A stretch of 48,449 bases of DNA from Candidatus Woesearchaeota archaeon (GTDB taxonomy: Archaea; Nanobdellota; Nanobdellia; Woesearchaeales; WAPJ01), in the NCBI GenBank assembly GCA_047602765.1, contig JBLKOL010000004.1, forward strand, positions 1 through 48,449, given 5' to 3'. Positions 6,228-10,627 of this stretch are shown here, piece by piece (position 1 is the first letter of the stretch; every line of letters starts with the position of its first letter). The notes below the pieces were generated by a model that made no database searches, had not been told where the DNA came from, and saw only the letters and a list, made by a program, of their open reading frames with translations. Made by a program: the position numbers and the translations under genes.

Positions 6228-6322
6228 ACACTGTCGAACCGAGACCTACGAACGAGTCAGCACGTTCATCGGTGGATGAGGTCTCCACAACGCTTAAAGC
6301 GCATCGAACCCCCTCTGTTCGT

Positions 6323-6763
6323 ATGGGAACGATCGAAGATCTCAACACGCTGCTCGCCGATGAATACGTCCACCTCGTACGCACGCTCTCGTTCCACTGG
6401 AACGTGACCGGACCGCGCTTCCTCGACCTACACGCGCATTTCGAGGAGATCTACAACGAGACGAAAGACGCGATCGACGAACACGCCGAACGCATCCGCA
6501 TGCTCGGAGGAACCCCGCTCTCTTCGATGGCACGGTTCATAAAAGACGCACACCTCTCAGAACTCGAAGACGCTCGCCTCGACCCGGATCGCATGGTGAG
6601 CGCTCTCATCGCTGATCGCGAACACCTCCTCGAGGACCTCAAGCGCTTCGCCTCCGCAGCCGCACAACGCGGTGAGCCGACGGATGAGGATTACTTCATC
6701 GGACGCGCGCGGGATATCGAACTTAGCCTCTACAAACTGCGTTCGATCGCCAAGAAGGTGTGA
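6323..6763 (+). CDS. dps: Dps family DNA-protecting ferritin-like protein
   Basis: HWNVTGPRFLDLH and DEHAERIRMLGG Dps signatures. Confidence 0.9.
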   Translation: MGTIEDLNTLLADEYVHLVRTLSFHWNVTGPRFLDLHAHFEEIYNETKDAIDEHAERIRMLGGTPLSSMARFIKDAHLSELEDARLDPDRMVSALIADREHLLEDLKRFASAAAQRGEPTDEDYFIGRARDIELSLYKLRSIAKKV

Positions 6764-7020: not shown

Positions 7021-8028
7021 ATGGAACACGATCTCGAACAGGCGCGCGAGCGCATCCTCAAACCCTCGGTTACCTTAGATGGTTGGCCGGAGGTGAAAGG
7101 CTACGACTTCAACGACGAGTGGGATTTCGACACGTTCGTCGAATCGTTCGGCACGACAGGATTTCAAGCACACGCGCTTCACCGTGCGATCATGATCGCA
7201 CGCGAGATGCAGGATGCCAAGGCGCACATCTTCCTCGGCTACACGTCGAACATGGTCTCATCCGGATTGCGCGAGCCGATCCGTTGGCTCGTCGAACACG
7301 ACAAGGTCGCGCTGCTCACCACGACGGCCGGCGGGATCGAAGAGGACGTCATCAAATGCCTCAAACCGTTCGTGCTCGGAAGCTACGAGGCGAAGGGAGC
7401 CGTGCTCAGAAGCGAAGGCATCAACCGGACGGGCAACCTGCTCATCCCCAACGACCGCTACCTCTACCTCGAACGCTTCCTCACACCGTTCTTCGAGAAA
7501 CTCCTCGAACGCCAGAAGAAGACGGGCGAAGTGCTCTCCGAATCCGAATTCATCTACTACCTCGGACTCGAGCTCAACGACGAGAGGAGCATCCTCACCT
7601 GGGCGTCACGCAACAACATCCCCTACTTCTGCCCGGGGTTCTACGACGGTGCGATCGGAGACATGCTCTACTTCTTCAAGAAGAAACACCCCGAATTCAT
7701 GATCGATGCAGCAAAGGACGTCGTGCGCGCCTACGATTTCTCGAACAACTGCGAACATGTCGGCATCATCGCTCTGGGAGGATCCGTGCCCAAACACTTC
7801 ATCGCCAATCTGAACATCTTGCGCGACGGTGCTGATTACGCGGTGTACATCACGACGGCACTCGAGTATGAAGGTTCGAACGCCGGTGCGAACACCGAAG
7901 AAGCGATCAGTTGGGGTAAGATATCCGAGGATGCCAAGCATCAGAAGGTCGTCTGCGAGGCGACGCTCGTCTTCCCGCTCTTCGTAAAAGCAGCATTCGT
8001 CGATCACGTCAGAATTGCGAAGGATTAA
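7021..8028 (+). CDS. dys: Deoxyhypusine synthase
   Basis: TTGFQA, GYTSNMVSSGLRE, TAGGIEED, GINRTGN and EAISWGK (catalytic Lys). Confidence 0.95.
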   Translation: MEHDLEQARERILKPSVTLDGWPEVKGYDFNDEWDFDTFVESFGTTGFQAHALHRAIMIAREMQDAKAHIFLGYTSNMVSSGLREPIRWLVEHDKVALLTTTAGGIEEDVIKCLKPFVLGSYEAKGAVLRSEGINRTGNLLIPNDRYLYLERFLTPFFEKLLERQKKTGEVLSESEFIYYLGLELNDERSILTWASRNNIPYFCPGFYDGAIGDMLYFFKKKHPEFMIDAAKDVVRAYDFSNNCEHVGIIALGGSVPKHFIANLNILRDGADYAVYITTALEYEGSNAGANTEEAISWGKISEDAKHQKVVCEATLVFPLFVKAAFVDHVRIAKD

Positions 8029-8083
8029 AACCTCGAACGTTCCAAAGACGCTTATCATCGGCTTTGAGGCGGAGGTGAACATC

Positions 8084-8518
8084 ATGACGACGAAGACGAC
8101 CCGCAAGTCAACGGCGAAGAAGCCCGCGCGTAAACCAGCGAAGAAGGCTCCGGCCCGAAAGACCGCTGCGAAGACCGCGAAGAAACCTGCGGCGAGAAAG
8201 ACCGCCGCCAAAAAGCCGGTCCGCAAGACGGTCAAGTCAGCTGCTCGCAAGACGACCAAGGCGGTGAAGAAGCCTGCTCGCGCTGTCAAGAAGGCAGTGA
8301 AGAAGACGGTTCGATCCGTGAAGAAAGTCGTGCGCAAGCCTGTCAAGAAGGCTGCTGCAAAGAAGCCAGCTCGCAAGACGGCTAAGACTGCGCGCAAGCC
8401 CGCGGCTAAGAAGCCTGTCAAGAAGACAGTACGCAAGGCTGCTGCAAAGAAGCCTGTTAAGAAGGCTGCTGCTAAGAAGCCTGCGCGTAAGACGGCTAAG
8501 AAGCCTGCGAAGAAGTGA
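8084..8518 (+). CDS. Histone H1-like Lys/Ala/Pro-rich basic protein
   Basis: 144 aa made almost wholly of AKKPARKT/KKPVKK repeats with AAG-biased codons; SD GGAGGTGA upstream. Confidence 0.8.
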   Translation: MTTKTTRKSTAKKPARKPAKKAPARKTAAKTAKKPAARKTAAKKPVRKTVKSAARKTTKAVKKPARAVKKAVKKTVRSVKKVVRKPVKKAAAKKPARKTAKTARKPAAKKPVKKTVRKAAAKKPVKKAAAKKPARKTAKKPAKK

Positions 8519-8661
8519 ACCGCTTCTCACACGGGCCCCCGGACAGTTGCTTATTCCAAGACTCGTTCTGCTCCCCGTCCATCGAGGTCATCTTTACGAA
8601 AGGTTATAACCTCGAACAACACTGGAACGGTATCTTCGCATGTGAAGCGGAGGTGAGTGAG

Positions 8662-8703
8662 TTGCCCAAGAAGGCTGCTAAGAAGGCCCCGAAGAAGAAG
8701 TGA
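8662..8703 (+). CDS. Putative 13-aa basic micropeptide MPKKAAKKAPKKK
   Basis: TTG start after SD GGAGGTGA; the upstream promoter closely resembles that of the H1-like gene. Confidence 0.45.
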   Translation: MPKKAAKKAPKKK

Positions 8704-8738
8704 CTGTGCTTCCCTTCACCTCGACGGACAGTTTGATT

Positions 8739-9497
8739 CTACTCGATTTTGATCGTGACCGGACAGTGGTCCGAACCCATCTGCTCGGTATCGTAGTGCA
8801 CGTCCCGTATTCGTTCTACGTCCTTCGCGTCGATGAAGAACGAGTCGATGCGCCAGCCGACGTTCCGCTCGCGTGCTCGACTGATGAGGTGCCAATAGCT
8901 GTAGACGACGCTATCCGGATGCTTCGCACGGAAGGCATCAGCCCATCCCGCTTCGAGTACTCGATCGACCCAGGCTCGTTCCTTCGGGTGGAATCCGATC
9001 TTGCCATCGTTCTCTTTGGGTCGTGCGATATCGATCTCGCGATGGGCTACGTTGAGATCGCCGCACATGATGACGCGCCGCCCCGAGGCTCGCAGTTCGT
9101 TCATATAGGTGAGTATCTGCTCGTAGAAGACGAGTTTGTACTCCCACGCCTCAGGTGATTTTCCGCCGTTGGGGAAATATATGTTGAGCAGCGACCACTC
9201 GTCGATGTCGGTTCTGATGACGCGTCCTTCAGGATCCCCGGCTTCAAGTCCCCGAAGCGTCGTGGTCTCAACGTTCTTTGTCCACGTAGCAACACCTGCA
9301 TAGCCTGCTTTCTCGCCGGTGTGGTACTCTTTCTCGTAGTAGGGGTATTCGTTGTCGAGGAATGTGAGTTGTTCGGCACTCGCTTTCGTCTCTTGCATGC
9401 AGAGGACGTCAGCCTTTTGCGTGTCGATCCATTCTTTGAGCGCTCCTTTGCGTGCCACAGCGCGCAGCCCGTTCACGTTCCACGATGAGATGATCAT
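8739..9497 (-). CDS. xth: Exodeoxyribonuclease III (AP endonuclease)
   Basis: SWNVNGLRA, QETK, YFPNG, GDLNVAH, GWRID and GSDHCP motifs. Confidence 0.95.
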   Translation of the reverse strand: MIISSWNVNGLRAVARKGALKEWIDTQKADVLCMQETKASAEQLTFLDNEYPYYEKEYHTGEKAGYAGVATWTKNVETTTLRGLEAGDPEGRVIRTDIDEWSLLNIYFPNGGKSPEAWEYKLVFYEQILTYMNELRASGRRVIMCGDLNVAHREIDIARPKENDGKIGFHPKERAWVDRVLEAGWADAFRAKHPDSVVYSYWHLISRARERNVGWRIDSFFIDAKDVERIRDVHYDTEQMGSDHCPVTIKIE

Positions 9498-9705
9498 ACT
9501 GCTCGTTCGAGCCGTTCACTGATAAGTGTACCGATGATGGTTCGGTGACGGTTATGAGAGTGAGTGGAGGGGTAACAACGTGCTCCGAAAGCTGGGTTCG
9601 AGAGCTCCAGCACGAAAGGGGAGTGTATGGTGATGAGTATCGGCGTAATACACTGGTGTAAGGGAGCGGTTGTCTGGGCTCTGTCCGTATAAGAAACGGT
9701 ATGCG

Positions 9706-10479
9706 TTAATTGAGTATTCGCTCCTGCGGTGTTCGCGGTTTCTTGTGTATGCCATAGCGGCGCGCGAGTTCTCCTGCTTGTACGTGGAGCATGAGCTCGT
9801 ATTCTCGCCGTTCGGCAGGGTCTTCGGAGTGTTCGATCGCCTTTACGAGTGCGCGGTACGTCGACTCGTGGGTCTCGCGTTCGTCCGTTACTCCTTGTCC
9901 ATGTGTGACTTCGTGTGCGTTGATCCACTTGTGGACGATGTCGGTTGTGACGCCGTGCAGAGCCGCGAGCGATTCGAGTTTTTGTTGGTAGTGTGTCGCA
10001 TCCCGAGTATAGTACCCTTGACCATTGCCGAGGAAGGTTGTTGTCTGTGCGGCTCCCGGCCACTCGTATTCGAGTTCGTCTACTCCGCTCGCGATCGTCT
10101 CGAGCGCCGTGTACGATTTGGTCTCTTCTCGGATCATCTCTCCGAGGATGCTCTCTTCGACCGATTTGACATCGCGCCAGTATGCTTCAGCGAGTCGGAT
10201 GGCCTTCTCTTCTTCTGCTCGGCTACGACCTTCAACGTAGATGGGTCTCCCTGTTTCGTGGTCGACGTAGGCTGCGAGCGGGGTGGTCACTGAACTATGA
10301 GCATACGGGTCGGGAAGCGTGGCTGATGATGGGTCGTTGATGATGGATTCGAGCGGGCCGAAGCCGATCATGATAGAGTCGGAACCGATCCGCATCTCGA
10401 TCCAATACGCTTCGACGCTCCATCCACTGGTTTGGATGTGTGAGGGTCGATCCGTAGCTACGTGAGAATCCAAATGCAT
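9706..10479 (-). CDS. Hypothetical protein with HExxH motif (possible zincin-like)
   Basis: AHEVTH followed by downstream Glu residues; TATA-like TTTTATC about 25 nt upstream of ATG 10479. Start uncertain. Confidence 0.5.
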   Translation of the reverse strand: MHLDSHVATDRPSHIQTSGWSVEAYWIEMRIGSDSIMIGFGPLESIINDPSSATLPDPYAHSSVTTPLAAYVDHETGRPIYVEGRSRAEEEKAIRLAEAYWRDVKSVEESILGEMIREETKSYTALETIASGVDELEYEWPGAAQTTTFLGNGQGYYTRDATHYQQKLESLAALHGVTTDIVHKWINAHEVTHGQGVTDERETHESTYRALVKAIEHSEDPAERREYELMLHVQAGELARRYGIHKKPRTPQERILN

Positions 10480-10514
10480 CAACCAGTGCTACGTGGAGGA
10501 TGATAAAAAGGTTA

Positions 10515-10627
10515 TGGGGGTACTGGGATTCGAACCCAGATCGACCGGTTGCTTCAGGTCATCGGCACGAGGCCTCTGCGCTCCACTACTGGAGCCGGTT
10601 GTACTAGCCAGGTTATACTATACCCCC
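10515..10627 (-). tRNA. trnW: tRNA-Trp(CCA) with 39-nt intron at position 37/38 (intron 10550-10588)
   Basis: Acceptor stem GGGGGTA/TACCCCC, anticodon stem ACCGG/CCGGT with loop CT-CCA-G|A, T-arm GGTTCGAATCC. Confidence 0.92.

Follow-up and report, generated by a model that had tools for sequence, protein, structure and literature searches.

The window analysed here is a stretch of 48,449 nucleotides (nt) from contig JBLKOL010000004.1 of a Candidatus Woesearchaeota archaeon. The element under study is a frame of 13 codons at 8662-8703, which stands behind a gene for a lysine-rich protein of 144 amino acids, in the following called the long paralog. An earlier note on this DNA had proposed that both frames are driven by a duplicated promoter and Shine-Dalgarno (SD) site and that the short one encodes a co-regulated micropeptide. 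On comparative sequence evidence, we judge it fairly probable that 8662-8703 is a genuine micro-gene with a promoter of its own. It would belong to a conserved family, undescribed so far, that appears to consist of K/A/P peptides of 11-26 residues in this order of small-genome archaea. Within-genome evidence alone first favoured a decaying remnant; the relatives changed that reading.

A tandemly duplicated expression unit

The features of the locus are given below, where copy 1 is the unit of the long paralog, copy 2 that of the micro-ORF (micro open reading frame), and BRE the transcription factor B recognition element.

7021-8028, plus strand: deoxyhypusine synthase (DHS) gene (Pfam PF01916, E 6e-100)
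8017-8038, plus strand: copy 1 promoter, BRE/TATA with TTAAAA at 8025-8030, then box AACCTCGAAC; overlaps the DHS stop codon
8025-8038, plus strand: copy 1 TATA plus box, sequence TTAAAACCTCGAAC
8065-8078, plus strand: copy 1 SD block TGAGGCGGAGGTGA, spacer ACATC (5 nt) to the ATG at 8084
8084-8518, plus strand: long paralog frame, 144 amino acids
8540-8547, plus strand: copy 1 3' box CGGACAGT, 21 nt past the stop
8596-8617, plus strand: copy 2 promoter, BRE/TATA with TTATAA at 8604-8609, then box AACCTCGAAC
8604-8617, plus strand: copy 2 TATA plus box, sequence TTATAACCTCGAAC
8631-8643, plus strand: copy 2 leader word TATCTTCGCATGT with the predicted transcription start (about 8632-8633)
8635-8643, plus strand: TTCGCATGT in the copy 2 leader; also in the leader of a relative's micro-gene (G003, see below), absent from copy 1
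8643-8656, plus strand: copy 2 SD block TGAAGCGGAGGTGA, spacer GTGAG (5 nt) to the TTG at 8662
8649-8656, plus strand: GGAGGTGA of copy 2, 5 nt before the TTG
8662-8703, plus strand: micro-ORF, TTG, 12 codons and TGA (8701-8703), peptide (M)PKKAAKKAPKKK
8725-8732, plus strand: copy 2 3' box CGGACAGT, 21 nt past the stop, then T-rich (TTT, TTTT) to about 8747
8739-9497, minus strand: convergent exonuclease III-like gene, its stop 7 nt beyond the copy 2 3' box

A complete expression unit (BRE/TATA, box AACCTCGAAC, SD site, start codon, K/A/P frame, TGA and 3' box) is thus present twice in tandem. Every string quoted for this duplication in the earlier note was found in place, and its offset of about 580 bp is precisely 579 bp. 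The retained spacing claimed there holds for the distance from SD site to start, 5 nt in both copies, but the gap between TATA-box block and SD block is 26 nt in copy 1 and 25 nt in copy 2, and hence not identical. Similarity between the copies begins near 8008, within the last codons at the 3' end of the DHS gene, and resumes past the stops, where CGGACAGT follows exactly 21 nt after each TGA (8540 and 8725). Beyond the copy 2 3' box, the T-rich stretch enters the 3' end of the exonuclease III-like gene. When the assembly of about 1 Mb (963,730 bp, 50 contigs, 56.6% G+C) was searched on both strands, TTA[AT]AACCTCGAAC and TGA[AG]GCGGAGGTGA occurred twice each, in all cases here, and GGAGGTGA occurred 24 times. 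The latter is the exact complement of the 16S rRNA 3' end (contig C6), and this 8-nt SD is perfect in both copies.

In the aligned 5' flanks, 49 of 76 columns are identical, with two runs of 10 among them. An identity of only 64% in the flanks shows that the duplication did not happen recently. Within this genome, the note's picture of retained blocks in a diverged spacer holds only weakly: when the columns were shuffled, the two longest runs together reached p of about 0.05, and the presence of two runs of at least 10 reached p of about 0.01, with a statistic picked after the data were seen.

To place the two promoters in their genomic context, signals upstream of the first ATG of 779 long frames were counted. 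TATA-like hexamers peak at -30 to -27 (counts 35, 48, 48 and 17, background 0-9) and SD-like pentamers at -13 to -10. The consensus of 104 promoters is an A-rich BRE, then TTTTAAAA, with T at -1. Most first genes in this genome are leaderless; the K-rich unit has a strong SD and a TATA element 58-59 nt away from its start, and its leadered design is consequently that of a minority. A promoter weight matrix (PWM) trained on 104 promoters of this genome gave 9.8 and 9.9 bits for copies 1 and 2 in the best register (training median 9.25); at the nominal register, less than 0.1% of genome positions reach the scores of the copies. Based on the TATA-to-start distance of the leaderless genes, transcription would start near 8054 and at about 8632-8633, which gives predicted leaders of about 30 nt in both copies. 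In the case of copy 2, TTATAA lies 58 nt before the TTG. A scan for bacterial-type promoters and terminators gave nothing relevant.

The micro-peptide has 13 residues, all of them K, A or P, with 8 Lys, 0 Arg and 0 acidic residues, and it ends in KKK-TGA; all 8 Lys codons are AAG. The term 'protamine-like' used for it in the earlier note is therefore inexact, as the peptide is without arginine. The frame matches the repeats of the long copy at 76% over 33 nt. It was also said to be missed by ORF callers, which is right in so far as it is not called as such; however, callers emit a 62-amino-acid frame at 8515-8703 (P0001, known from 6 contigs), which takes in the promoter and has the micro-ORF as its final part. 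This longer frame had no match in Pfam or NCBIfam (the 13-mer itself is under the 20-residue minimum), and a database search with it returned only the window's own sequence. Regarding expression, no RNA contig covered 8545-8739 in two metatranscriptome runs from a single study, at a low depth where a transcript of about 100 nt is easily lost; the same runs had 100% identical contigs on DHS and on the long gene (8075-8266, 8212-8427 and 8305-8544). A genome-wide count of TTG after SD-like words gave 122, against 141 for CTG as control, a count swamped by coding sequence. The predicted transcript folds no better than shuffled sequences (z +0.48 and +0.26), and no Rfam family matched at E up to 1. 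An SD-sequestering pairing in the minimum-energy fold was dismissed as a composition effect on the same z values. A role as amino-acid-sensing leader peptide or attenuator is also unlikely, because the next gene (8739-9497) is convergent and no regulated gene follows on the same strand; the related gene in G003 likewise faces a convergent gene.

The long paralog is a K/A/T/R/P/V repeat protein with 50 Lys and zero acidic residues. Its coding repeats are imperfect, with periods of 12-54 nt in multiples of 3. It stays below the cut-offs of Pfam HC2 (PF07382; 12.4 bits vs 40, E 0.17) and NCBIfam NF038053 (9.9 bits vs 80, E 0.8), and no other Pfam domain was found at E up to 10, nor a winged-helix globular domain. 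Judged from its sequence, it is 'H1-like' by composition and not as a family member, and it is not a linker histone, since it has no winged-helix domain. A protein database search with it gave no match at all, probably owing to composition filters, and genome searches gave only two weak matches. Sequencing runs of other samples showed variation within this gene. Contigs of runs X5, X7 and X8 over 8336-8507 have other repeat arrangements, with skips of 67 and 93 nt and 28-30 replaced letters, and contigs from other samples carry a 3-nt deletion at 8140. This points to a repeat array of strain-dependent length, or else to an alignment of similar genes from other organisms.

Lysine-rich micro-genes in related archaea

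The nearest genomes belong to other genera of the same family, with DHS 69%, 68% and 58% identical. Scanning the family genomes for K-codon words revealed a free-standing 22-codon K/A/P gene, MAAKKKAAAKKPAAKKPVKKKK, on contig C16 of G003, the genome with 69% DHS identity. The elements of this gene follow each other as TATA-rich promoter, ATATTCGCATGT, CAGGAGGTGA, a 5-nt spacer, ATG and 22 codons; in terms of words, the TATA element is followed by TTCGCATGT, AGGAGGTGA, the 5-nt spacer and ATG. Downstream, a TAA stop is followed after 2 nt by CGGACAGT. The gene lies between a convergent protein gene and tRNA-Gln, far from any long paralog. On the same contig there is a long K/A/T/R/V repeat gene as well, of which at least 72 amino acids are present before the contig ends; its BLASTP E value against the window's long gene was 2.2, at which orthology cannot be shown.

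Several words connect the G003 gene with the window. At the predicted transcript start, TTCGCATGT is common to G003 and copy 2, with copy 1 lacking it, and the 3' box CGGACAGT is common to G003 and both copies. As these words are so rare in the window's genome (10 occurrences of TTCGCATGT and 25 of CGGACAGT in 1.93 Mb, both strands), homology explains the sharing better than chance. Across 401 genomes the 3' box is not order-wide (4 matches vs 9 in the reversed control), and it follows a K-rich frame only in G000 and G003. The two frames are co-linear as well, with KK-AA-KK-AP-KKK-stop in the window and K-KK-AAA-KK-P-(AAKKPV)-KKKK-stop in G003. A side observation concerns the ATG within TTCGCATGT. 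In the window (8640-8645) it directly precedes TGA, so that start and stop codon adjoin each other about 8 nt from where the transcript is predicted to begin. In G003 the same ATG is the first of 11 codons, and this frame closes 1 nt ahead of the micro-gene ATG. This may be a tiny upstream frame, or the ATG may simply belong to the initiator region.

For the G003 unit, gene callers give a frame of 60-71 amino acids that crosses the promoter. A search with this extended frame led to two more organisms, in which the frames end in MAAKKKAAKKPAAKPAKKKK (...QEVNDMAAKKKAAKKPAAKPAKKKK; P0003) and MAAKKKAAKKPAAKKKAAKKK (...EKEVNMMAAKKKAAKKPAAKKKAAKKK; P0005). The stretch from TATA to ATG is equal in G003 and P0003, corresponding to 26 codons. 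Identity between them occurs in three blocks, namely the TATA element, GCATGT and SD-plus-start, with none upstream of TATA; because it is limited to these blocks, the extension represents promoter and leader, not a coding N-terminus. The false caller extension, seen in the window, G003, P0003 and P0005, is the sole form in which these micro-genes enter protein databases.

The earlier note had proposed a search of related genomes for SD sites with short K/A/P frames downstream of H1-like genes. At the level of the order, the pattern GGTGA-N3-9-ATG-SCN-GCN-AAR-AAR-AAR (an SD followed by M-(A/P)-A-K-K-K) was run on 41 genomes with a reversed control. It gave 9 matches in 5 of the 41 genomes and 0 in the control, with the following frames:

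G008: 11, 25, 26 and 150 amino acids
G039: 18 amino acids
G003: 22 amino acids
G027: 53 amino acids
G019: 76 and 79 amino acids

All 9 frames have the SD site; in most of them a TATA-like element lies about 50-70 nt upstream, and a T-run comes shortly past the stop. In the case of G008 (loci L193, L197, L198 and L199), three separate oligolysine micro-genes of 11, 25 and 26 codons were observed, and its 150-amino-acid protein begins with ~65 residues of the same K/V/A repeat, to which a globular C-terminal part is fused.

The first 15 residues of the G039 peptide, MAAKKKAAAKKPAAKKKK, recur unchanged in that of G003, a genome of another family. At the codon level, 5 of these 15 are identical and 10 synonymous, with 0 non-synonymous (third vs first and second positions, Fisher p about 1e-6). 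Going by the codons, this pattern is best read as selection on the translated peptide, in a K/A-rich sequence that is itself compositionally constrained. The promoter of G039 has TTTAGACCTCGAAG at 67 nt before the ATG, where the word ACCTCGAA follows a TATA-like element; the same word follows the TATA element in both window copies.

To compare the window copy with this family, we used the leadered promoter, the SD, the ATG with M-(A/P)-A-K-K-K, a short K/A/P frame with a K run, and the words shared with G003. The window copy has its promoter within the range of about 50-70 nt upstream (58 nt, PWM 9.9 bits) and a GAGGTGA-type SD within 3-9 nt of the start (GGAGGTGA, 5-nt spacer). It also has a frame of at most about 30 codons of K/A/P (T or V being allowed) with a terminal K run, and the non-coding words TTCGCATGT and CGGACAGT. 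Of the features used, the ATG/MAAKKK start alone is absent from it; purifying selection on the peptide is seen between G039 and G003. Copy 2 has all four words shared with the relatives (ACCTCGAA, TTCGCATGT, the SD context and CGGACAGT), and copy 1 is without one of them.

A closer relative was seen in run X8, from an independent study, where a contig of about 93% identity covers 8336-8672, that is, the gene end and the second promoter. On this alignment, the second promoter and the first micro-ORF codons are evidently present in a relative that is about 7% diverged. In the same run, two joints, 8008->8630 and 8555->8630 (one contig each, depth 4.2), resume right where transcription is predicted to begin. 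Both were placed at 85% likeness, so that another organism or repeats could produce them, and they were not used as evidence.

Other searches were less productive. DHS was found in all 41 related genomes, with no adjoining K-rich gene at the 29 relatives' loci examined; not even the genomes of the same family share the order of genes around DHS. Broad K-codon patterns were no commoner than reversed controls in AT-rich relatives. Other SD-plus-KK start candidates in G000, G001 and G002 proved to be ordinary longer genes, and a two-box pattern searched across the genome collection gave 45 matches, 43 bacterial and 2 archaeal (L090 and L112), which look like chance.

Weighing the explanations

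Several observations weigh against a functional micro-gene. The micro-ORF starts with TTG, and the five short relatives all start with ATG. Its N-terminus, (M)PKK (TTG-CCC-AAG-AAG), is without the conserved MAAKKK, and the order-wide pattern missed it. With 13 codons it is the second shortest frame found, only the 11-codon frame of G008 being shorter. The clustering of identity within the genome is only marginal and could be caused by gene conversion between the tandem copies. Low-complexity K/A sequences can converge, and part of the family signal could be compositional. The genomes that provide the conservation evidence are of other genera, and the close relative in X8 is seen only to 8672, where its contig ends in repeats. 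In the other two genomes of the family, G001 (91% complete) and G002 (77% complete), the patterns used gave no homolog.

Many of these points would equally fit an inactivated copy. It would stem from a functional micro-gene or from the long gene; TTG would have replaced its ATG, part of its frame would be gone, and its signals would either not yet have decayed or be kept by gene conversion. We regard this as a serious but clearly less probable explanation. The changed start, the missing MAAKKK, the shortness and the marginal block conservation are all what it would predict, and slippage between repeats of 3n periodicity shortens frames in frame without any selection. However, the duplication is not recent (49/76), and yet the TATA element, the predicted start word, all 8 positions of the SD and the 5-nt spacing are intact. 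A start-type codon stands in frame, none of the eight AAG codons is broken, and the stop and 3' box are present as well. Copy 2 has moreover kept TTCGCATGT; because G003 has this word and copy 1 does not, copy 2 was not simply overwritten by copy 1. The second promoter and the frame start are also present in the ~7% diverged relative. For the earlier note, a collapsed duplicate remnant was the outcome to expect if relatives showed no conservation; relatives do keep such genes, and the TTG start leaves inactivation possible. Altogether, its interpretation is partly supported.

The remaining readings are improbable even when taken together. One of them is that the function lies in the RNA or the promoter, either as a non-coding RNA of about 100-120 nt antisense to the 3' end of the exonuclease III-like gene or as an extra regulator site for the long gene, the peptide being irrelevant. 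This would agree with the conserved non-coding words (TTCGCATGT at the 5' end, CGGACAGT past the stop, ACCTCGAA by the TATA element) and with the convergent stop just 7 nt beyond the 3' box. We consider it quite improbable, as the constraint in relatives is on the peptide (0 non-synonymous vs 10 synonymous changes), all length changes are in frame, the G003 gene has a different neighbour, and the fold scores and the Rfam search described above argue against a structured RNA. Even less credible is the 62-amino-acid frame as the real product, coupled to the long gene via an overlapping GTGA and carrying a K-rich tail. It is open for 54 codons upstream of the TTG, its GTG overlaps the long gene's stop, and similar extended frames are open in G003, P0003 and P0005. 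Its upstream part, however, is the duplicated promoter, aligned to copy 1 with a 1-nt indel, and the equivalent stretch of copy 1 overlaps the end of the DHS gene. The G003/P0003 similarity vanishes upstream of the TATA, GCATGT and SD blocks, and the frame matched no Pfam or NCBIfam family, its sole database match being the window itself. Finally, a repeat-induced mis-join of the assembly that made a truncated second copy can practically be set aside. Coding repeats do break assemblers, and several contigs end or jump within 8336-8507; but the contig of an independent study spans 8336-8672, the spanning 62-amino-acid frame is on record from 6 contigs, and a mis-join of one copy could not account for the 27 of 76 flank positions at which the two copies differ.

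Possible function and genomic setting

If 8662-8703 is indeed a micro-gene, the archaeal BRE/TATA promoter would start a short leadered mRNA near 8632, on which the perfect 8-nt SD, 5 nt before the TTG, would recruit the ribosome for initiation at this codon. With 8 Lys among its 13 residues and none that is acidic, the product would be a polycation. By its composition, such a peptide may bind polyanions (DNA, RNA or ribosomes) through charge, like H1-type tails; binding to nucleic acid is here inferred by analogy. Co-regulation of both copies via the shared box is plausible from the sequence. Long and short forms could interconvert by tandem duplication and in-frame expansion or contraction of the 12-54-nt coding repeats. 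Because copy 2 keeps more of the relatives' features, the long gene may be a derived, expanded copy and the micro-gene of the ancestral type.

A more speculative extension, which we hold to be rather unlikely, is a tunable polycation system. In such a system, oligolysine genes of 11-26 residues would supply bulk counter-ions for DNA or ribosomes, and long paralogs would be born from them and collapse back into them, the 13-codon gene being the ancestral seed and the 144-amino-acid protein a recently expanded tandem copy. If true, these peptides would rank with the smallest known products of stand-alone genes under selection, and the cells that use them would be ones of very limited biosynthesis.

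Similar compositions are known from several systems. The C-terminal tail of eukaryotic linker histone H1 and the tail-only H1 of some protists consist of K/A/P with words of the AKKA/KKP type and are presumed to neutralise charge. The composition here is the same, but neither copy has a winged-helix domain, and with 13 residues only, homology cannot be shown. Protamines are very short, very basic, arginine-rich and DNA-condensing; the micro-peptide is also short and basic, but with 8 Lys and 0 Arg. The almost purely basic ribosomal proteins eL41, bS22, bL37 and Thx are encoded by stand-alone genes of about 24-33 codons, which annotation often misses. These are Arg/Lys-rich with fixed sequence and length, whereas the K/A/P family varies in length; by this likeness, rRNA is a plausible alternative target. 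Chlamydial Hc2 (PF07382), NF038053 and Pseudomonas AlgP (see PMC9239181) resemble the long paralog in having K/A/P repeats, no acidic residues and no globular domain, and PF07382 and NF038053 are the only library families it touches, at the sub-threshold scores given above. In contrast to these bacterial H1-like proteins, the host here is an archaeon, and the micro-ORF has about 1/10 their length and its own promoter.

Translation of unannotated frames of at most 70 codons, established by ribosome profiling or peptidomics, is reported for Haloferax volcanii (PMC10117724) and Methanosarcina mazei (PMC11456600). Compared to the small proteins mapped there, the present case rests on comparative sequence evidence only. 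Among the papers listed by full-text literature searches, no description of free-standing oligolysine genes in archaea was found.

Should the 13-codon frame and its relatives of 11-26 codons be translated, they would be among the shortest stand-alone genes with their own promoter under purifying selection and would constitute a new minimal class of prokaryotic chromatin- or ribosome-associated polycations. They would also provide a natural example of a family with a more than ten-fold length change by coding-repeat slippage, which bears on the origin of low-complexity proteins such as H1-type tails. Standard annotation skips such micro-genes or reports a false longer frame that swallows the promoter, and small-genome archaea may contain an abundant basic component that is invisible to trypsin proteomics.

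Some further observations concern other genes. Outside the window, G000 has a second K/A/P-tailed gene (C41:5280-5627) with two copies of a module of about 40 residues (VGVKKESGFLYFVD...GDVSRA) followed by KKAAKKPAARKKPAARK, a TTTATATA promoter and a AGGTGATC SD site. Its ortholog is conserved in L033 (G003:C47), and it may encode a small protein that binds DNA and carries an H1-like tail. Within the window, a ferritin/Dps-like gene (PF00210, E 1.5e-21) lies at 6272-6763, just upstream of DHS. The neighbourhood is thus rich in DNA-associated functions (ferritin/Dps-like, K-rich genes, exonuclease III-like), with no evidence of linkage between them. An intron-containing tRNA (Rfam tRNA, 113 nt) was located at 10515-10627 on the minus strand, overlapped by a spurious 329-amino-acid frame from 10493. 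A metagenome scan with DHS gave 46 loci, and in the best of them (L045, 71% identity) a similar intron-containing tRNA comes right after DHS, at about 723-835. As the tRNA directly follows DHS there, the stretch 8029-10500 may have been rearranged or inserted in the lineage of the window.

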